Of a stretch of DNA of 64,000 bases, positions 32,386 through 53,175 are shown in pieces. Made by a program: the position numbers and the translations under genes. Within the stretch, counting starts at the first letter, position 1. Every line of letters begins with the position of its first letter. A model generated the notes under the pieces. That model saw nothing but the letters and a program-made list of their open reading frames with translations, was not told the DNA's origin and did not search any database. This stretch comes from an uncultured Rhodospirillales bacterium (GTDB lineage Bacteria; Pseudomonadota; Alphaproteobacteria; JAWKYA01): assembly GCA_964397465.1 (NCBI GenBank), contig CAYNIC010000011.1, positions 3,503-67,502 of the forward strand. Reading direction: 5' to 3'.

Positions 32386-33687
32386 CTAAGGAGATCTCTT
32401 TTTCTGATCTTTGCTCTTAAACTTTAGTTTTGGCTGAGGATGGCGTGAGCCATACATCCATTTAGGGTCTATTATCAACTCAGGTTCTTTTTTGGGAGTC
32501 GCTGGTCTTGGAGGGAGAGAAAGCTGCATCGCTTTATCGCCTTGAGCAATATTTTTTAAATGATTTTTAAATAAGCTAACGTCACCAAAATAGTTTGGAT
32601 AAGCAATTTTCAGATTTGCAATCTTATCTATTTCTACCAAAACAACCTCAACCATTTTTTCATTTTCTCTCAATTCACTTTCAACCCTATTGTAAGACTC
32701 AGTAGCAGCAAGCGCTGTGTAGTAGGGGTCAAGATAGACGTAATTTGTAGCGTAATCATACTTAACAAGAAGGTGTGTTGCCTGAGTATTTTGAAGTTGA
32801 GCAGAGCTTGTTCCCTCGACTGCAAGGCTGACACCTTCCAGCAAATTAACAGCATTCAACACATGTGCTAGTTCCCTTATCTCTTCTCGGCGTTCATTAG
32901 CATTAGGTGTGTTAGGAACCGTCGGGCATTCTTCGTGTTCAGCAAACTCGGCTGACATTAATGTTAACAACCGAAGCCAGTTATGGTCGCCCTTACTATA
33001 TTTAAGTTCTTTTTTAATTATAAGACCTACAGATTCTACGGCTGTTGCCCAGGTATGTTGAAGTTTTGTTCGTATCTGAACTTCTATTTTTTTGCCATCG
33101 AAGGCCGTAGGCCGCTTTCCTTGGTAGCTAAAAATAATGTGGTGACTACGATAGCCATCATCTTTAGGTGAAACAATAAAATCTTTCTCACTGTGAAAAC
33201 TGTTAGAAAGATGATGAGTCAAAATATCGCTAATATTTTTTACGTCAGAAATACTTTTAACAATTGCTCTGCATCCGCCGATATCTTGAATCGTTTGCAG
33301 TTTTAAGCGAGTGAGCCTATTTAACTTGTCGCGAATTGACTGCATTCGTTTAAGTCTAGCCGCTACCAGGCCTTCTTGCTTATTGGCTCGTAGCAATGCT
33401 CTAATTTTACCTCGAATACTTCTCATAGGATAAGCATGAGCTTCCCGCCAGTTGTTAGCTATAAGGAAAGCATCGCGGACCTCGAAAGGTATATCGGTTC
33501 CTTCTGGGTGCAGATTTTTTACAGCAATTATTTTACCCGCCTTCTCTATATCGTTAAGCGAGAATTTAAGGTGTGGATAATCGTTCTCGTCAGCCAAGGA
33601 AGGCTCCAAATTAAGGATATCATCCTCCCAGGAAAAACACTTTTCCCGGGCATCTGAGGCTACTATAAGAAATGGTAGATTAGCCAT
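32386..33687 (-). CDS. RelA/SpoT-domain (small alarmone synthetase / toxSAS-like) protein with N- and C-terminal extensions
   Basis: ORF 32386..33750 trimmed to the ATG at 33687 after AAGGAA. Synthetase-fold motifs GGCRAIV, DGYRSHHIIF and EVQIRTKLQHTWA. No HD hydrolase, TGS or ACT region. Markedly AT-rich. Confidence 0.75.
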   Translation of the reverse strand: MANLPFLIVASDAREKCFSWEDDILNLEPSLADENDYPHLKFSLNDIEKAGKIIAVKNLHPEGTDIPFEVRDAFLIANNWREAHAYPMRSIRGKIRALLRANKQEGLVAARLKRMQSIRDKLNRLTRLKLQTIQDIGGCRAIVKSISDVKNISDILTHHLSNSFHSEKDFIVSPKDDGYRSHHIIFSYQGKRPTAFDGKKIEVQIRTKLQHTWATAVESVGLIIKKELKYSKGDHNWLRLLTLMSAEFAEHEECPTVPNTPNANERREEIRELAHVLNAVNLLEGVSLAVEGTSSAQLQNTQATHLLVKYDYATNYVYLDPYYTALAATESYNRVESELRENEKMVEVVLVEIDKIANLKIAYPNYFGDVSLFKNHLKNIAQGDKAMQLSLPPRPATPKKEPELIIDPKWMYGSRHPQPKLKFKSKDQKKRSP

Positions 33688-33724
33688 GAAATTCCTTTCT
33701 AAGAGATCAAGAATAATCCCTACC

Positions 33725-34345
33725 CTACCTACGCCCTGCATAAGGATCATGTAGAGCAGGTACAGTAACTTGTGACGTAGCGCCGCCGCCGTTGCGTTGG
33801 AAAAGTTTCTCGGCTAACCGCGCGATGCCACCGCCGTCGGGCAAGCTCAACGGGCCCGACTTATCGTGGCTGCGCTTATAGACATAGATGCCCAGAACGC
33901 CCAAAGCGACACTCCAACTGGTCGAGAGGTTGTCGAGGGCCGCAATCACCTCCACGGCAAACGCTGGTTTGATCGCGATCAGATAGGCAACCGCCCCCAT
34001 CTGTCCCAACCAGGTCACGGCGATGATATAACCAAAGGTGGGTCTCATGCGCCGCACGTAAGGATCGTCCGACGCAACCTCGCGGCGGATGGTGCGGTTG
34101 ACTTCGGTCAGTGTAACGGCATCCCGGTCGGCTTCGATCTGCGCCATGGTTTCCAGATGGCGGTTGGCCTCGTTTATTGCTTCGGGCGGAACCTCGCCCT
34201 TGCCGATGGCGTCGGTGACACGGCCTAAGGCGTCGGACGCTGCCTTGGCCAAAGGATGAGAGAGTTTACCAAGGGCAAATCCGACGAGTTTGGCAAGAAC
34301 CGGCAAGCCGATGCCGGCAAGAAGACTGGCAAACATTTTTGTCAC
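33725..34345 (-). CDS. Putative 3-TM holin (GTA/phage holin_3TM-like)
   Basis: DPYVRRMRPTFGYIIAVTW plus following hydrophobic helices resemble the 3TM holin family. GTGA overlap with the hydrolase gene (alternative ATG at 34336). Confidence 0.55.
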   Translation of the reverse strand: MTKMFASLLAGIGLPVLAKLVGFALGKLSHPLAKAASDALGRVTDAIGKGEVPPEAINEANRHLETMAQIEADRDAVTLTEVNRTIRREVASDDPYVRRMRPTFGYIIAVTWLGQMGAVAYLIAIKPAFAVEVIAALDNLSTSWSVALGVLGIYVYKRSHDKSGPLSLPDGGGIARLAEKLFQRNGGGATSQVTVPALHDPYAGRR

Positions 34346-46884: not shown

Positions 46885-46993
46885 CAAGGATCTCCCTGAA
46901 GCAGGTGGAACGAACGGGACAAAGGGTGGAAAAAACAAAACCCGCCGCGGTTTCCCGGGGCGGGTGAGAAGAGGCGGAGTCATGGCCTCATGT

Positions 46994-47008
46994 GTTCCTA
47001 TATAGTTC
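46994..47008. promoter_or_regulatory. Alphaproteobacterial-type SOS (LexA) box GTTC-N7-GTTC
   Basis: GTTC ctatata GTTC read directly. Overlaps the -10 of the promoter listed next. Confidence 0.65.
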
Positions 47009-47027
47009 TCTTTTCAGTTCCTGTCAA
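46999..47027 (-). promoter_or_regulatory. Near-consensus sigma70-type promoter for the portal-to-holin genes
   Basis: The minus strand reads TTGACA (47027-47022), 17 nt, TATATA (47004-46999). Confidence 0.6.
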
Positions 47028-47109
47028 CGGTATTTTTTCTTAAAAAATGAAAAAGAAGCTGGCCGCCTGTGGGCAAGGTTTCCTTCCGGCTGAATCCCCA
47101 GCGTCTATT

Positions 47110-47562
47110 TCAAGAACGGCTTACCCGACCCGCGGGATTTAAAAGACGTCCCGCGTTCCTGTCCGTCAGGGATAAAAATAACCGCCATGGGGTCCAAATA
47201 AATCGGCGCCGCAGGTGCAAAATATTTTTTACCACGGCAACGCAGGTCATCGGCCGCAGCAGGTTAAGACAAGATCGATGGCGCCGCGGGGTGCGGGTCA
47301 TCGGCATCATCACGGGAATCGGCACCGCACCCTTTGCGGTATAGAATCGAATCATCTCCGCAACGGAGTAGGGAGGAAGGAGTTTGATCATCAGACGGCC
47401 GCACAGGGGATCCACCATGATCCATCCGCTGGCGATTCGATAAAGGATAAAGCAATGGCGGAAGCCTCGTTTCAACAGATAAAACCATGGAAATTCCAGC
47501 TCGCCGCGAAATACCACGATCGCCGTAACCCCGCGGCGCGGACGATCAGAGTCGGCGGTCAT
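47110..47562 (-). CDS. Hypothetical 150-aa protein
   Basis: The 244-aa track ORF is trimmed to the ATG at 47562, which overlaps the upstream stop (ATGA). No family recognised. Confidence 0.45.
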   Translation of the reverse strand: MTADSDRPRRGVTAIVVFRGELEFPWFYLLKRGFRHCFILYRIASGWIMVDPLCGRLMIKLLPPYSVAEMIRFYTAKGAVPIPVMMPMTRTPRRHRSCLNLLRPMTCVAVVKNILHLRRRFIWTPWRLFLSLTDRNAGRLLNPAGRVSRS

Positions 47563-47924
47563 CGGACGATTCCCTTGGCCCGCAGCGGCGGCGTCAAACG
47601 CTCTAACGCTTCGCGCCACAGCTTGGCGAAGTTCGCCTCTTCGCCCCGGGCATAGGGCGACGGAGCGCGGCCCATGCGGCCGTAGTGCATCAGGATTTTG
47701 ACATGAGCCCGGCGCAGGCGCCGTCGCTCGACCAGCCGCACCAGCTCGCGCACCACGTCGTCGGGCTCGCAGGGTTTGGGGGTGGATTTTCCCGCCTCGA
47801 ACCGGGCGCCGTCGGCGCGGGCGGTCAGGCAGGCGACGCACCAAAACCAGCAGGCTAAACTCGTCGGGAAAGGCTCCCCAATCGTTGTTCCCTTGCCGGT
47901 GGTGATAAGCTTCAACTGGCCCAT
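47559..47924 (-). CDS. Hypothetical 121-aa protein, first gene of the cluster (possible regulator)
   Basis: ATG at 47924 after AAGGGAG. Arg-rich helical C-terminal half. Confidence 0.45.
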   Translation of the reverse strand: MGQLKLITTGKGTTIGEPFPTSLACWFWCVACLTARADGARFEAGKSTPKPCEPDDVVRELVRLVERRRLRRAHVKILMHYGRMGRAPSPYARGEEANFAKLWREALERLTPPLRAKGIVR

Positions 47925-47969
47925 GGCTTTGCTCCCTTGAAGGGCTTTTTTCTCTCGCGGTAAACGAGT

Positions 47970-47984
47970 GTTCTATTATTGTTC
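47970..47984. promoter_or_regulatory. Second SOS (LexA) box GTTC-N7-GTTC in the divergent control region
   Basis: GTTC tattatt GTTC read directly. Confidence 0.6.
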
Positions 47985-48084
47985 GCTATTAGAGGGAGAG
48001 TCTATATGCACAAATACCCATGTCAAGCCTGAATCAGAATTTGATCCTAGTGACATTTTTCACCTGAATTGTGAAGGTGTTCCC

Positions 48085-48717
48085 ATGTTGAGACATGCGG
48101 ATATATGGCGGGGGATTGACCGTTTGGCTGCGACACATAATTTGTCGCCCTCGGGCTTGGCTCGAAAGTCAGGATTGGATCCCACCACCTTTAACAAATC
48201 AAAACGGGTTGCCCGGGATGGCAAGCCGCGTTGGCCGACGACGGAAAGCCTGGCGAAGATTCTGTCGGCCACCGGCGCCGGCATGAACGAATTCGTCTCA
48301 TTGATGAGCGAGACTCCCGGCACCTCGGTAACCCAGCGGATCCCGGTCATCGGCTATACCCAAGCGGGTCAGGCCGGTTACTTCGACGACGCCGGTTATC
48401 CCGCGGGCAAGGGCTGGGACGAGGTGGAGTTCCCCGATGTCGGCGATCCTCACGTTTATGCGCTGGAGATCAACGGCGACAGCATGATGCCGGTTTATCG
48501 CGACGGCGACGTGGTTGTGGTCTCGCCCCAGGCGCAGATCCGCCGCAACGACCGGGTGGTGCTGAAGACCGTCGAGGGCGAGGTGATGGCCAAGGTGCTC
48601 AGCCGCCGGTCGGCCAAGAAGATCGATCTGCATTCGCTCAACACCGATTTCCCCGATCGCAGCCTGGACAGCGACGACGTGCTGTGGATCGCGCGGATTA
48701 TCTGGGCCAGCCAATAG
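48085..48717 (+). CDS. HTH + S24 peptidase (CI/LexA-like self-cleaving) repressor
   Basis: ORF trimmed to the ATG at 48085 after GAAGGTG. N-terminal HTH (LSPSGLARKSGLDPTTFNKSKR), an Ala-Gly linker, and GDSMMP...K catalytic dyad. Confidence 0.8.
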   Translation: MLRHADIWRGIDRLAATHNLSPSGLARKSGLDPTTFNKSKRVARDGKPRWPTTESLAKILSATGAGMNEFVSLMSETPGTSVTQRIPVIGYTQAGQAGYFDDAGYPAGKGWDEVEFPDVGDPHVYALEINGDSMMPVYRDGDVVVVSPQAQIRRNDRVVLKTVEGEVMAKVLSRRSAKKIDLHSLNTDFPDRSLDSDDVLWIARIIWASQ

Positions 48718-48731
48718 TCTTAGCGCCGATT

Positions 48732-48874
48732 GATTCCGCGATTCCTGTCGCAAGATTCCATTCCTTAAATGCCGGAGTCCGACTCTTCTCCTAACTTGGG
48801 TATGAAGAGTCGAGATTGCTGTCGATTAGGAATCCTTGAATCGCCCCCGAATCTTCAATGAATCTTTCTGAATC
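48732..48874. repeat. Dense GANTC array: 11 sites in 143 bp; GATTC x3 left, GAATC x5 right, inverted repeat in the centre
   Basis: Sites counted by hand at 48732, 48740, 48754, 48775, 48781, 48807, 48830, 48838, 48849, 48860 and 48870. 9-bp inverted repeat CGACTCTTC (48780-48788) / GAAGAGTCG (48804-48812). Confidence 0.85.
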
Positions 48875-48952
48875 CCATTTCGGAGGCGACTAGCTGGCGC
48901 CGGTTGCGTAGCCGGCCTAGGATCGGTCGCCACCTTTAAAGAAAGATCCGCC

Positions 48953-49813
48953 ATGGCGAAGAGTCTAAGTAACGAGGATAATTGTCAGACCTTCGTCGAT
49001 GGCCGGTGGATCGCGGGCAATCCGCCGCTGATGCATGCTATGACCCATGCGGTGTGGTTGGGATCGGTGGTGTTCGACGGCGCGCGGGCCTTCGACGGCG
49101 TGGCGCCCGATCTTGATCTTCATTGCCATCGGGTCGTCAATTCGGCATCGGTGTTGGGCTTGGCGCCGACCCTGACCGCGACGGCGATCGAAGATCTGGC
49201 GCGGGACGGCATCAAAAGATTTGCGCCGAACACCCCGCTCTATATCCGGCCGATGTTCTTTGCCGAGGACGGGATGCTGGCGCCCGATCCCGCCACCACC
49301 AAATTCGCCCTGGTGATGTGGGAGGATCCCTTGCCGGCGCCGACCGGATTTTCCGCAATTGTCACACCGATGCGGCGCCCGCCGCCCGAAGCGGCGCCTT
49401 CGGAAGCCAAAGCGTCTTGTCATTATCCCAATCTGGGTCGCGCGGTGCGCTGGGCAAAGGAACGCGGCTTTGACAACGGCGTGGTATTGGATCCCGCCGG
49501 CAAGATCGCCGAATTCGCTTCATCGAATATTTTCTTCGTGCAGGACGGGGTGGTGGTGACGCCGGCGGCCAACGGCACTTTCCTGAATGGCGTCACGCGG
49601 CGCCGCGTGTTATCGCTGTTGCGCGCTGATGGCGTGAAGGTTGAGGAACGGGTAGTTGACCCGTCAGAGCTTGATCGCGCGTCCGAAGTTTTCTCCACCG
49701 GCAACTATGCCAAGGTCATGCCGGTGACGCGGATGAACGATCGCAGCCTGCAGCCGGGACCGCTGTTCCGCCGCGCCCGCGAGCTCTATTGGGGTTATGC
49801 ACATGGGAAGTAA
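48953..49813 (+). CDS. ilvE: Class IV aminotransferase (branched-chain amino acid aminotransferase-like)
   Basis: 286 aa. Fold-type IV pattern including the EAKASCHYPNLGRAVRWAKERGFDNGVVLD region. Confidence 0.7.
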   Translation: MAKSLSNEDNCQTFVDGRWIAGNPPLMHAMTHAVWLGSVVFDGARAFDGVAPDLDLHCHRVVNSASVLGLAPTLTATAIEDLARDGIKRFAPNTPLYIRPMFFAEDGMLAPDPATTKFALVMWEDPLPAPTGFSAIVTPMRRPPPEAAPSEAKASCHYPNLGRAVRWAKERGFDNGVVLDPAGKIAEFASSNIFFVQDGVVVTPAANGTFLNGVTRRRVLSLLRADGVKVEERVVDPSELDRASEVFSTGNYAKVMPVTRMNDRSLQPGPLFRRARELYWGYAHGK

Positions 49814-49829: not shown

Positions 49830-50627
49830 ATGCCTTACGTACAGCGAGATAAAAAAGGAATTGTAACAGGGTTATTTGAACATAAATTACCAGAGGCTAC
49901 TATGGAATTTCTGGAAAAAGACGATCCGGAAATTAAAGACTTTTATGATCGATTTCCACTATCGCCTCAGATGATAGAGGCGCTTCGCCCTAAATCTACA
50001 AAAGAGTTACTCGAACAGCATCAAAAAATTGAAAAAGAATATAATCAACTTATAGAAGACCATAAAGCACTTCAAAATCTCATTATATCTTTATTAGGTG
50101 TATGGGCGGAAATGGAGACTAGCTTTGCTGGCTTACTAAATGTTCTTTTAACAGGAAGTAGAGAAAAATTGGCGTTTGCACTTTACTTTTCTATTCGAAA
50201 TTTTCAAACGCAAATGACGGTAATTCAAACACTTGGTGAAGTGCTTTTTCCTTCCGAAGAAAATTCAAAAAAAGTGTATAAAGAATGGGAGTCAGTTTTT
50301 AATAAAATTAAAAAGGAAGTACCTGAAATTCGAAACAGAATCGCTCACGGGCATATAGTCCAGTTCTTGCACGAGAAGAAACATATACGTGTTTTGCCGC
50401 CATTTTTTGATTTCATTAAAATAGAAAAAAGCAACGCAAAAGCTGAATTACCTGGAGTTGGACAAAACGAAATATACAAAAGTATAAAGGTAATAGGCCT
50501 AACTTCTCAGTTTGCCAATCGCTTGTCGCTTATTTTTAAGCGTTCTTTTGAAGGCGAGGCATTAGCACTTAAAGAAATTGATTTGGAGCTCAAAAGTTAT
50601 AAGGAAAATTTCAAAAATTTAAGATAA
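49830..50627 (+). CDS. Hypothetical protein with HEPN-like Rx4H motif
   Basis: 265 aa, strongly AT-rich and all-helical. The motif EIRNRIAHG sits at the end of a helical-bundle-like region. Start lies 17 nt after the ilvE-like stop, with RBS GAGGGAG. Confidence 0.5.
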   Translation: MPYVQRDKKGIVTGLFEHKLPEATMEFLEKDDPEIKDFYDRFPLSPQMIEALRPKSTKELLEQHQKIEKEYNQLIEDHKALQNLIISLLGVWAEMETSFAGLLNVLLTGSREKLAFALYFSIRNFQTQMTVIQTLGEVLFPSEENSKKVYKEWESVFNKIKKEVPEIRNRIAHGHIVQFLHEKKHIRVLPPFFDFIKIEKSNAKAELPGVGQNEIYKSIKVIGLTSQFANRLSLIFKRSFEGEALALKEIDLELKSYKENFKNLR

Positions 50628-50765
50628 CAGATGATATAAACATCAGCACCGCCATACGTCGTGTCAATGTCCTGAGATCGACTATCCGCCGGTGCCCTTC
50701 AGCAATAAACCCTTTGCCAGCCTCAGCCCGCTTAAGTAGCATTGCGCGGAAGGGATTTTCGTCTC

Positions 50766-51779
50766 ATGACGCTAAATTATCTCGAACTGATTATCGGCAG
50801 TCTGTGCTTAATCATCATCGGCTTCTGCGCCGGTGTTGTTATCCATGCCGGCGAGATCATTCCCTATCAGCCGCTGATCGTCGGTTTGATCGCGCTGGGC
50901 GGCGCGGTGATCGCCTATGTCGGAACGCTGAGGGCATCCCACGCCCATCTGCAGGTCGCCGAGAAGAACATCAAGCATCAGCAAGAGCAGAAGGCGCTGG
51001 ACTCTATCAACGAGAAACAGGAAATCGCGTCCTTTGCGCAAAAGCTGCTGCTGGAAATATTCAATTATCTGGTGGCGACAAGCCTTCTTTCCCGGGACCA
51101 GGCCATCGATGAAAAATGGCTCAACCTCTTGACCCTGAAAGACATGATAGAGCGATATGTCACCAGGATGGAGGACGCCTCGGATAAATTCATGAAACTG
51201 GACATTAACAACTCCAGCCGAATTCATCTGATCATTCGCGGCTTGAAAAACATCCTGCCCGAGGCGGAGACGATCCAAAATATAAATCAGCTGATGAAAA
51301 CCGGCGACAATGGCGCGATCTGCGCCCAGTATATCAACCGCACCTATGAATATATCGGGACATTCTTGAACGAGAACGTTACGGTACATGACATCCTTAA
51401 CGACTTGGATGTCATCTCCAAGGGCAATGTGGATCAATCAAGGGCGTATTCGATCTTGACGACGGATCTGAGAAAAATCATCAACGAGAATCTGAGGCTT
51501 ATTCAATCCGCCGTCACCGCGGGCCGCTATCTCGAGATCGATTATCCGCCGGGGCGCCGGGTGGTGGCGCCGCATATTTTGGGGCGCACCAGCAGTGGCG
51601 AGCTGGTGCTCAGCGTCTATCAAGTCAACGGCGCCAGTGATGCTGGCGAGACGGTGGGGTGGAAGACTTTCCATCTCGATCGCATTTTGGGCGTAAGGGT
51701 GTTGGATAAACGCTTTTCACCGCAGGGCGATTACAATCCCCACGATCCGAAAATACCCGAAGTTATCGTCAAGGTATAA
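50766..51779 (+). CDS. Two-TM membrane protein with C-terminal WYL-like domain
   Basis: ATG at 50766. TM helices LELIIGSLCLIIIGFCAGVVI and PLIVGLIALGGAVIAYVGTL. C-terminus YLEIDYPPGRRVVAPHILGR...LVLSVYQ...WKTFHLDRILGVRVLDKRF fits the WYL pattern. Confidence 0.55.
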   Translation: MTLNYLELIIGSLCLIIIGFCAGVVIHAGEIIPYQPLIVGLIALGGAVIAYVGTLRASHAHLQVAEKNIKHQQEQKALDSINEKQEIASFAQKLLLEIFNYLVATSLLSRDQAIDEKWLNLLTLKDMIERYVTRMEDASDKFMKLDINNSSRIHLIIRGLKNILPEAETIQNINQLMKTGDNGAICAQYINRTYEYIGTFLNENVTVHDILNDLDVISKGNVDQSRAYSILTTDLRKIINENLRLIQSAVTAGRYLEIDYPPGRRVVAPHILGRTSSGELVLSVYQVNGASDAGETVGWKTFHLDRILGVRVLDKRFSPQGDYNPHDPKIPEVIVKV

Positions 51780-51803
51780 GCGCCGCAGCGCGCCTGTTGC
51801 AGG

Positions 51804-51875
51804 TGCGGATCACTGATCAACAGTTTTCATCGCAGCTAAAGGACCATCTACGCGATGTGATTGTCACTCCCATCA
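51804..51875. repeat. Direct repeat R1 (~72 bp)
   Basis: Hand alignment with 53176-53246 gives about 56 of 72 identical with one gap. The best block is TGCGGAT.ACTG.TCAACAGTTTT. Confidence 0.75.
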
Positions 51876-51903
51876 GCTCTGCAAATAGGTCTATACGGTT
51901 CAA

Positions 51904-52623
51904 TTAATTTGTCGTTTGAAAGCCACGAATCGCCCAGAGTATTGACCATCCAAATATAAAGATAATCGTTGGGGGAATGATAAACATACCCAGGATAAAT
52001 AATAAACTTTTGTCAGCTATAGATCGATATTCTTTGGCATGGTTTTTTGCGGCATCAATTTTGTCTAACCGGCTTACTTTAGATTTGTAGATTTCTGCAG
52101 GGTTACGGCCGCAAGGAAGATCTATGATCTGTCTTGATTTTTCTGCCAGATTCTTATTCAGAATATTTCTAGCATCTTGAATAGATAATGACCTAAAATC
52201 AACAATAGTAACCCAAGCTTCTCGTTTAAAAGCTTCCACTATAGCTTCCAGCTGTTCATCAGATAATTTTTCAAAGTCAAACTTAGTTTGGGATGACGGA
52301 TTTTGTTTCTCCGTTTGTCGTTCTGGTGGGGGAAAATTTGATTCTTGTATTTGATTAAGATCTATCCAGCCGTTCTCCATAAAATAGAAGATAGGCTCAG
52401 TGCGGCATTTAGTTCTATAATACTTTCCTACTTCCGGTTCAGGCAGAGAGTCTGTCTCTGATTGTAGAAAAGATATTTCGCGATCTGCTTCTGCAGAACG
52501 CCTTATATTATTAGTATATTCCGATTTCAATTCGGTTAATACCAGCCAAGCTACCAGCGAAACCCATATTGCACTAATTATCAGCCATAAACGAAAAAGC
52601 CCTCTTCCAAATCTAGACATCAT
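51904..52623 (-). CDS. Hypothetical membrane protein with N- and C-terminal TM helices
   Basis: 239 aa, AT-rich. Third gene of a translationally coupled trio. Confidence 0.5.
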   Translation of the reverse strand: MMSRFGRGLFRLWLIISAIWVSLVAWLVLTELKSEYTNNIRRSAEADREISFLQSETDSLPEPEVGKYYRTKCRTEPIFYFMENGWIDLNQIQESNFPPPERQTEKQNPSSQTKFDFEKLSDEQLEAIVEAFKREAWVTIVDFRSLSIQDARNILNKNLAEKSRQIIDLPCGRNPAEIYKSKVSRLDKIDAAKNHAKEYRSIADKSLLFILGMFIIPPTIIFIFGWSILWAIRGFQTTN

Positions 52624-52813
52624 ACTTTAGGCACTCTTCTGCAGAAGCAACTTCAGATTTTAATTTTGAATAATCTATATTTTCACCCCAAGGTTTATCG
52701 TCTCGAGCGTTCTTTAAGGCGTCGCTGCAAAGATCTTTATTGCTCAAATTCGTAAATGGATATGAATAGAATTTTGGTGGGTAGTCTGGAATAGTAACTT
52801 TCACACATTTCAT
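52613..52813 (-). CDS. Hypothetical 66-aa protein
   Basis: Overlaps both neighbours (ATGA with the upstream gene, 11 nt with the downstream gene). Confidence 0.4.
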   Translation of the reverse strand: MKCVKVTIPDYPPKFYSYPFTNLSNKDLCSDALKNARDDKPWGENIDYSKLKSEVASAEECLKYDV

Positions 52814-53046
52814 TGTTTGATCTTTCCATTATTTTTTATAATTTGGTTGGGATCGAATCCCTCCGCCACAAGAAGTGAGCTAAGTTGTTCACCAAAACTT
52901 TTACTGTCTTCATATGCGAAGAGAGGCTTTTGAGTCTTATCAGATACAGATATATAAACGCGCCCTTGACCCGCATGCTCAAAATCAAAGTTGTAGCCAA
53001 GGTCATGGAGCGCAATGAGCATTCTGGCGTTGTTTGTATTGCTCAT
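52810..53046 (-). CDS. Hypothetical 78-aa protein
   Basis: First gene of the trio. Preceded by a very AT-rich ~125-bp leader/promoter region. Confidence 0.45.
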   Translation of the reverse strand: MSNTNNARMLIALHDLGYNFDFEHAGQGRVYISVSDKTQKPLFAYEDSKSFGEQLSSLLVAEGFDPNQIIKNNGKIKQ

Positions 53047-53175
53047 TAGGTTATGCTTCCCTTTTATTTCTATTTAAAAGGGTATCATTAAATATATATA
53101 ATTTTAAATAGTTTTAAAAACACCTGACTTTTCAGTATCTTCTGCCTAGAAATCATTTTTAGCGCATTGTGTGGT

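Follow-up and report, generated by a model that had tools for sequence, protein, structure and literature searches.

A conserved, genus-specific array of GANTC sites as a candidate methylation-site-rich control region upstream of a branched-chain aminotransferase gene

Why would a stretch of bacterial DNA that holds the pentamer GANTC, the CcrM methylation motif of Alphaproteobacteria, at about half the expected frequency gather 11 copies of it within 143 bp of non-coding sequence? The question is raised by a 64,000-nt stretch of a contig from an uncultured Rhodospirillales bacterium (CAYNIC010000011.1; hereafter the window), in which the pentamers form an array inside a 235-bp spacer that runs from the stop codon of a gene for an HTH-S24 regulator to the ATG of a gene for a branched-chain amino acid aminotransferase, next to a phage-derived, T7-like gene cluster. 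An initial annotation of this DNA had set three readings side by side, namely (a) a methylation-dense control region, (b) an iteron-like protein-binding site of the phage-derived element and (c) the regulatory region of the aminotransferase gene. Readings (a) and (c) are best merged, because GANTC is the unit that is conserved and repeatedly gained, and because its position relative to a -10-like hexamer is kept. On balance, judging from sequence comparison, the array is probably a methylation-site-rich upstream control region of the aminotransferase gene, and not a part of the phage cluster. Its parts and flanking genes are listed below, in window coordinates.

48085..48717, + strand: HTH-S24 (LexA/CI-like) regulator gene; Pfam Peptidase_S24 plus HTH; 210 aa
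48730..48844, strand not applicable: conserved non-coding core, 115 bp, with seven ancestral GANTC (L1-L3, M2, M3, R1, R2)
48732..48758, - strand: left arm, GATTC sites L1 (48732), L2 (48740) and L3 (48754); L1 and L2 make a GANTC-N3-GANTC pair
48775..48779, + strand: M1, GAGTC, in the window clade only (window and L313)
48780..48812, strand not applicable: central inverted repeat CGACTCTTC-N15-GAAGAGTCG, holding M2 (GACTC, 48781) and M3 (GAGTC, 48807)
48813..48843, + strand: invariant block of ~30 nt, GATTGCTGTCGATTAGGAATCCTTGAATCG, with the GAATC pair R1 (48830) and R2 (48838); identical in eight of eight lineages
48845..48892, + strand: lineage-specific spacer extension with GAATC sites R3 (48849), R4 (48860) and R5 (48870), at spacings of 11, 11 and 10 bp
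48918..48923, + strand: TAGGAT, putative -10 hexamer on the basis of its conservation, with a weak -35; predicted start near 48930
48953..49813, + strand: branched-chain amino acid aminotransferase gene; Pfam Aminotran_4; NCBIfam NF009896 equivalog, 402 bits against a cut-off of 262

All 11 pentamers, and the perfect 9-bp inverted repeat (48780-48788 and 48804-48812), were found where the initial annotation had placed them, and its claim of a density far above chance was borne out. Local base composition predicts 0.52 GANTC in the 146-bp stretch against the 11 seen (Poisson P of at least 11 = 1.3e-11; 8e-7 after correction for 64,000 window positions). Over the whole window there are 141 GANTC, compared with 276 +/- 15 in dinucleotide-preserving shuffles (0.51 of expectation), and the ratio of observed to expected sites, which is 0.47-0.53 in host-like segments and phage-derived structural genes alike, reaches 12.3 in the 235-bp spacer. 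Among pentamer families of the form XYNZW, GANTC is the sole enriched one, in every lineage. The densest other 150-bp stretch of the window holds 4 sites, and the densest in ~870 kb from 80 other alphaproteobacterial loci holds 5. Our yardstick of an ordinary dense GANTC cluster came from three Rhizobiales loci (L052 369-560, L057 343-560 and L066 2-180), in which 5-7 GANTC in ~250 bp accompany sequences that resemble the DnaA box TTATCCNCA ~5.5 kb upstream of an ilvE-like gene, and which are probably parts of an origin or of a control region of the dnaA type. The depletion to 0.51, which also holds in the phage-derived genes of the window, is like that of CcrM-bearing Alphaproteobacteria, in which GANTC is depleted at least two-fold genome-wide and tolerated in intergenic DNA (PMC3973325).

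How are the sites arranged? The five of the right arm are helically phased, with a resultant of 0.9 at a period of ~10.25 bp. The large quasi-palindrome that the initial annotation described stands as far as the opposed orientation of the pentamers and the short inverted repeat are concerned; beyond these the likeness of the two halves is marginal, and there is no single dyad axis. A large true palindrome was rejected on this count, direct and inverted alignments of the halves each being matched by ~3% of shuffles. An origin by tandem repetition or slippage was likewise discarded: TRF finds no tandem repeat, and the units share the pentamer only (5-7 bp) and are joined by unrelated spacers. 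As first proposed, no open reading frame explains the region, since neither the mechanical open reading frames nor a 19-codon one (48802-48861) that overlap it account for the array.

To what extent has the array been maintained? Close relatives, traced via members of 90%-identity protein clusters, added seven further lineages in five further clades (L326; L318; L314/L317, with L321 and L325; L308; L311, with L324), L313 grouping with the window. Four-fold degenerate sites in the S24, aminotransferase and 121-aa genes are 54-74% identical between the window and two of these relatives, and the S24 protein is 97-99% identical within the genus. Within the core, which begins 12 nt after the S24 stop codon, 91 of the 115 columns are invariant among seven lineages, and ~93% conservation holds across eight congeneric lineages; outside it, column identity is 64% just after the S24 stop, 30% in the 3' part of the spacer and 64% in the promoter-proximal part. 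The core carries seven GANTC in most lineages and six in one, and on this same conserved element the totals per lineage are 6, 7, 9 or 11. The pentamers are its most conserved positions: the specified bases of GANTC vary at 1 of 28 core positions, as against 23 of 80 elsewhere in the core (Fisher p = 0.007). The 3-nt spacer between L1 and L2 varies (CGC, AGA, AGG or AGC) while both pentamers are invariant in every lineage, and L3 is lost in L311/L324 only. M1 arose by substitution within a variable 10-nt block. In the central inverted repeat the loop and the pentamers are conserved and relatives keep 6-7 of the 9 bp, position 48805 being A, G, C or T among lineages with no compensating change.

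The core is present once in the window, and its nhmmer profile matches the orthologous spacer only in 3.1 Mb of fetched loci. A dispersed palindromic repeat of the MITE or REP type was rejected on the same grounds, the search having covered the window and these loci. A scan of metagenomes with 20-mers returned the orthologous locus and one unrelated promoter family. The 21-nt CGATTAGGAATCCTTGAATCG of the invariant block also stands ~35 nt upstream of an acyl-CoA-dehydrogenase-like open reading frame on unrelated metagenome contigs of 63% GC (L319 860-883, L320 1799-1822, L323 2976-3000 and 2168-2189), and a near-copy, with GAAATCC for GGAATCC, lies beside a toxin-antitoxin-like insertion. This may be a chance 20-mer in a collection of ~1e12 bases, or the sequence may belong to a promoter or operator module shared within branched-chain catabolism.

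Sites have been gained as well as kept. The extension with R3-R5 is absent from L318, L326, L308 and L311, and the window segment that holds it is ~33 nt longer than its L318 and L326 counterparts. In the L314/L317 clade the spacer is 19 nt longer, and two extra sites, set in otherwise unalignable sequence, occupy the R3 and R4 columns as GATTC and GACTC, where the window has GAATC and GAATC. Either the two clades retained these sites from a common ancestor or the sites were gained twice. Because the central bases differ between the clades at aligned columns, the constraint falls on GA-N-TC and not on an oriented GAATC word, a pattern that points to selection acting on GANTC itself and that is the prediction of a methylation motif or of a reader of it.

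What, then, would the sites act upon? All lineages retain a hexamer TA[GA][GA]AT at 29-39 nt ahead of the ATG, with a poor -35 sequence 17 nt upstream of the hexamer; from this conservation we infer that TAGGAT is the -10 element of the aminotransferase gene. In four of the six clades the centre of the promoter-proximal GANTC lies 45-46 nt upstream of the hexamer. Relative to the predicted start, the proximal centres are as follows.

Window and L313: -58, site R5
L326: -58, site R2
L318: -57, site R2
L314 clade: -57, the extra GACTC
L311 clade: -46, site R2 (one helical turn closer)
L308: -64, site R2

The distance from core to hexamer differs by 19-33 bp, and in the two clades where it is larger, new GANTC sites occupy the added sequence and end at the same position. 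The new pair of the L314 clade (-65/-57) exactly copies the positions of the L318 R1-R2 pair, and the value for L326 was predicted before its locus was retrieved. The 11 window sites fall between -58 and -196, and 6-7 of them are conserved in eight lineages. Such a distance rule is hard to explain unless the array acts on the aminotransferase promoter. The octamer GGCGCCGG at 48896-48903, in the putative -35 position and kept in four lineages, is reported to be an m4C-methylated motif in Azospirillum thiophilum (PMC4706337); the match may be a coincidence.

These observations favour two of the original readings, the methylation-dense control region as a prediction from the conservation and repeated gain of GANTC, and the aminotransferase regulatory region from the distance to the conserved -10-like hexamer that is kept across clades. 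How might such a region work? A DNA-binding factor that recognizes GANTC, or is excluded from it, depending on the state of N6-adenine methylation, would assemble on the phased sites. It could be a methylation reader of the GcrA type, or else a protein that, like MucR, shields sites in competition with CcrM. From the site ~57-58 bp upstream of the start, the factor would modulate a promoter that has a recognizable -10 and a poor -35. Transcription of the aminotransferase gene, and possibly also of a cargo gene 17 bp downstream of it in the window strain, would in this way be coupled to the replication or methylation state. The enrichment, the conservation, the preference of both conservation and repeated gain for GANTC, and the constant distance to the -10-like hexamer are seen in the sequences; that the sites are methylated and bound by a protein, in which direction expression is changed and where transcription starts is what we infer.

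Several points weigh against this account. The distance rule was recognized post hoc, and one of the six clades, L308 at -64, clearly departs from it. No sigma-70-type promoter on the + strand passes a consensus scan, the GANTC sites lie at -46 to -196, outside the -35/+1 zone in which promoters activated by GcrA in Caulobacter typically carry theirs, and YGAKTCK has no match on either strand of 48718-48952. Neither ccrM nor gcrA lies in the window. The whole 115-bp core is conserved, including blocks other than GANTC such as the 30-nt invariant stretch, and because these blocks are conserved too, more than methylation sites is read. The oriented central bases of the window (TTT...AAAAA) hint at strand-specific recognition, beyond CcrM alone. 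Finally, every array-bearing lineage also has the T7-like cluster where its contig reaches far enough, so that the two are not fully separable within the genus.

Is the array then a possession of the phage cluster, or of the aminotransferase gene in general? Relatives outside the genus speak to both possibilities. The S24 protein recurs at 65-72% identity, and always with 210 aa, in thousands of Rhodospirillales sequences; the HTH segment of the family (SGLAR..GLDPTTFN.SKR) is invariant, the family is found with and without an adjacent T7-like cluster, and in this the protein is more like a core chromosomal regulator than like a phage repressor of the usual fast-evolving kind. In L088/L089 the gene order is HAD hydrolase-EAL-pyrD-DUF952-S24-aminotransferase, with no phage genes; in Azospirillum thermophilum (L090) a T7-like cluster with a 60% identical portal protein adjoins S24; and in an Azospirillaceae metagenome-assembled genome (L086) two early cluster genes adjoin S24 and the contig ends before the structural genes. 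The aminotransferases of these relatives are orthologous, at 52-60% identity, and keep their synteny with S24. Their S24-aminotransferase spacers hold zero GANTC, cluster present or not, and no upstream GANTC cluster was found at 80 more distant homologous aminotransferase loci of Alphaproteobacteria. Because the spacers of the distant relatives are without GANTC both with and without the cluster, the array belongs neither to the T7-like element nor to a general mode of regulating the aminotransferase gene; on these comparisons it is a genus-level innovation, specific to one genus. A regulation of the aminotransferase conserved across Alphaproteobacteria was rejected on the 80 loci and the syntenic orthologues, none of which has the array. 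The initial annotation had proposed to look for the array in genomes free of the cluster, where its presence would have meant plain gene regulation; L088, which keeps the S24-aminotransferase synteny and has no cluster, is also without the array. The array lies next to the phage-derived locus and not, as first described, at its right edge, since an S24/HTH gene that is conserved chromosomally across Rhodospirillales separates the two.

The array might nonetheless be a cis site of the T7-like element, be it a pac-like site of terminase recognition, an origin or a partition-type centromere of phased repeats, from which packaging could possibly start into chromosomal DNA. The early end of the cluster is 0.8 kb away, and the cluster is present in every array-bearing lineage with enough contig; arrays of phased GAATC, their spacers unrelated, turn up repeatedly on viral contigs of high GC near terminase, portal and primase genes; and in T7 itself short-repeat arrays adjoin the terminal repeats. 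We consider such a role very unlikely, given that the clusters of A. thermophilum and of the Azospirillaceae genome are without GANTC downstream of S24, that a host-type gene stands in between, that the terS-like and terL genes are 11.5 kb away, and that no rep, par (ParA/ParM/ParB/ParR) or integrase gene is among the flanking open reading frames of the array. No motif is shared with the conserved LexA-box promoters of the cluster, blastn gave no phage or plasmid homologue, a scan of a viral collection with a 19-mer gave no match, and the fixed distance to the aminotransferase -10 hexamer is left unexplained; the iteron-like phage site of the initial annotation is hence not supported. Its individual forms were rejected in turn. 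A packaging (pac/cos) site does not fit an array that is not co-inherited, being absent from L086 and L090 with their homologous early genes and present in congeneric lineages only. Replication-origin iterons are tandem, conserved full-length units of ~17-22 bp that adjoin a rep gene and come with DnaA boxes or an AT-rich unwinding element, whereas here TRF finds no repeats, 5-7 bp are shared, and there are no DnaA boxes and no rep neighbour. For a partition centromere of the parC/parS type the neighbours are the S24 and aminotransferase genes, with no Par-family match among the flanking open reading frames. Operators shared with the cluster promoters fail for want of significant similarity, the common TTCCTGTC being the reverse complement of the -35 of that promoter, TTGACAGGAA. 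Still less probable is an operator field for the neighbouring HTH-S24 repressor, which would put the aminotransferase under DNA-damage control. The 12-nt gap after the S24 stop, the 97-99% identity of S24 in the genus and a dyad suited to a dimeric HTH protein speak for it, but the HTH segment is nearly invariant across array-less genera, so that its binding specificity must be older than the array; neither the divergent promoter region of S24 and the 121-aa gene (47925-48084), where autoregulatory operators would be expected, nor 46984-47109 is significantly similar to it; the array holds no GTTC-N7-GTTC box, even with one mismatch allowed; and its repeats are mainly direct pairs, not palindromic operators.

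Could the element function as RNA rather than DNA? The 5' leader of the aminotransferase mRNA, an S24-aminotransferase intercistronic element or a small RNA would each make GANUC repeats and a long imperfect hairpin features of a structured transcript. We hold this to be improbable. No terminator was found between the S24 and aminotransferase genes, folding of the + strand gives z = -3.3 for the spacer and, in five lineages, z = -2.2 to -4.5 for the core, and variable columns lie mostly in predicted unpaired regions. The minus strand, however, folds about equally (z = -1.7 to -5.3), as a DNA palindrome would, compensatory + strand changes number zero, and several pairs are broken, for example at columns 13/113 and 26/99 and at position 48805. 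Because both strands fold and pairs break without compensation, the fold signal is the behaviour of a DNA palindrome. No Rfam family matches the window at the gathering threshold, nor does any match 48650-49000 even at E <= 5; no promoter or terminator delimits a small RNA; and gains of GANTC that differ in central base and orientation and keep a set distance to the -10 are hard to explain on the RNA level. A leader peptide or small protein, encoded at 48802-48861 (MKSRDCCRLGILES...), can scarcely be credited, even though its first 14 codons are kept in all lineages (the ATG plus 13 codons, with one CGA/CGC change that is synonymous) and its Leu-Gly-Ile-Leu with a rare TTA codon stands upstream of a branched-chain aminotransferase gene. 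It has no Shine-Dalgarno sequence at a workable distance (a GGG ends 1 nt before the ATG), and ten consecutive codons show no synonymous change where four-fold sites elsewhere are 26-46% diverged. Its C-terminal tails differ wholly in length and sequence, and no downstream terminator would serve attenuation. The conservation reaches 70 bp upstream of the reading frame, and the GANTC enrichment is left unexplained.

Where would a methylation-site-rich control region of the aminotransferase gene stand among known systems? GcrA controls promoters that carry one to four GANTC, and MucR shields such promoters from CcrM (PMC5172544, PMC7987155); for clustered GANTC in promoters, shielding by a protein bound to the DNA has been documented (PMC5172544), and m6A at GANTC is reported in the Azospirillum thiophilum methylome (PMC4706337). 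With the CcrM/GcrA/MucR promoters of Caulobacter and Sinorhizobium (ctrA P1, ftsZ, mipZ and podJ, and P169 with four GANTC) the array has in common several GANTC in non-coding upstream DNA, genome-wide depletion of the motif and restriction to a lineage. It differs from them in having 7-11 sites in 110-145 bp, the described cases having 1-4; in the pairing of its sites around a dyad at -46 to -196, not over the -35/-10, with no YGAKTCK; and in the conservation of the whole 115-bp block, with site gains that keep a fixed distance to the -10. GcrA-activated promoters of Caulobacter carry YGAKTCK within about -40 to +40 of the start (PMC7987155), and membership in that class, as defined in Caulobacter, is not supported by motif or position. 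A genus-specific array fits the known rewiring of GcrA/CcrM regulons, because these differ strongly between close relatives (PMC7987155). As a sequence pattern, the array would fit an unusual version of the CcrM-type promoter system.

Other comparisons are instructive as to geometry. Like class I activator sites (CRP at -61.5) and tandem boxes of the PhoB/OmpR type, the array combines direct repeats at 10-11 bp, a poor -35 and a proximal site near -57/-58; unlike response-regulator boxes, it has a 5-bp core that is palindromic bar the central base, orientation and central base are interchangeable between clades, and no regulator gene is associated with it. With iteron and centromere arrays (R1 parC, origin iterons, T7 terminal repeats) it shares short repeats at about one helical turn, opposed sets round a centre and phage-derived neighbours; it differs in that the pentamer alone is repeated, no rep, par or terminase gene adjoins, the array is a single chromosomal copy, and homologous clusters in other genera are without it. 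Motifs of DnaA, CtrA, LexA, sigma-54 and EcfG, and YGAKTCK, are all absent from the array region.

In Escherichia coli, GATC clusters at oriC and the dnaA promoter are read by SeqA, and pap is governed by an Lrp/Dam epigenetic switch. The likeness to these systems lies in ~11 methylation-motif sites at about one helical turn and in a protein that reads or blocks methylation of phased sites. The differences are that motif and enzyme are GANTC and CcrM rather than GATC and Dam, that the target is a metabolic gene, and that the array is not at an origin, having no DnaA boxes and no GC-skew switch. Alphaproteobacteria are not known to have a SeqA homologue. By analogy, a multimerizing protein might read or block hemi- versus full methylation at the 7-11 phased CcrM sites, as a SeqA/Lrp-like sensor without a described equivalent, a tentative and rather unlikely scenario. 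If it were true, the aminotransferase gene and the variable cargo genes inserted just after it would be expressed in a replication-timed or a heritable ON/OFF manner, and evolution would be adding and removing GANTC units while keeping one at a fixed distance from the promoter.

Methylation of GANTC by CcrM is one of the core signals of the alphaproteobacterial cell cycle. Known CcrM target promoters carry one to few sites, and the role of site number, spacing and position is poorly understood. The locus constitutes a natural series in sister species, with 6, 7, 9 and 11 sites, interchangeable central bases and a promoter distance that is kept. Should methylation or a reader of it be at work at this locus, the rules of multi-site epigenetic control could be tested directly on the series, outside Caulobacter and Sinorhizobium, in Rhodospirillales and at a metabolic gene. 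If the array is instead an ordinary operator field of a dedicated regulator, it would still be a clear case of compensatory evolution of binding sites.

Arrays of similar appearance exist in viral sequence. High-GC viral contigs carry 5-13 GAATC/GATTC at 10-11 bp, with unrelated spacers, beside large-terminase, portal, primase/helicase or HNH genes (L134 10164-10320, L116 9547-9690 and L174 8693-8800; also L104, L158, L263 and L303), and L134 has a layout of left GATTC, palindrome and right GAATC that resembles the window. A pattern scan of viral contigs for four phased GAATC gave over 200 matches; since their contexts are mixed (terL, portal, primase, HNH) and many are plain tandem repeats, they are not one family and say little on this locus.

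The T7-like module itself occupies ~34.3-47.0 kb on the minus strand and encodes portal, scaffold, capsid, tail tubular A and B, fibre, a small-terminase-position protein, large terminase, endolysin and a holin-like protein, followed by two small genes of no assigned function (47110-47924). Further right come S24, the array spacer, the aminotransferase gene, a low-GC stretch of ~4 kb and a gene for a DinG-like helicase. On the left, the phage-derived cluster is flanked by pyrD, and no tRNA gene was found in the neighbourhood. The cluster has no polymerase, primase or integrase gene, and its GANTC depletion is like that of host DNA (0.50 of expectation). It stands beside the same S24 gene in Azospirillum thermophilum and six congeneric clades, as do its two early genes in the Azospirillaceae genome, and it looks vertically inherited and domesticated, in the manner of a gene transfer agent; our literature search found no paper describing a T7-like agent of such a kind. 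The late-operon promoter of the cluster (minus strand, 46994-47030) reads TTGACA-N17-TATATA, its -10 being covered by a LexA-type box, GAAC-N7-GAAC, and a second LexA-type box, GTTC-N7-GTTC, lies at 47970-47984 in the divergent region of the 121-aa gene and S24. Both boxes are invariant in 5-6 lineages, and such a box is also present in A. thermophilum, which suggests that particle production is under SOS control.

Directly 3' of the aminotransferase gene, comparison of L308, L311, L313, L314, L317 and L318 reveals a variable cargo slot (49830-53100). In the window it holds low-GC (33-41%) genes of no assigned function, one of them with weak WYL/AbiEii-like matches. Four sister lineages have other genes there, including one for a SocA_Panacea protein, and two have nothing before the 69-aa, glyoxalase and DinG genes. 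A defence or regulatory function of these low-GC genes that would bind the array was considered and rejected, as they give no convincing matches and no two lineages have the same cargo. A low-GC gene of 454 aa at the opposite end of the T7-like cluster (32386-33750, minus strand) matches the PADLOC candidate defence family PDC-S33 (E = 3e-104) and phrog_4773.

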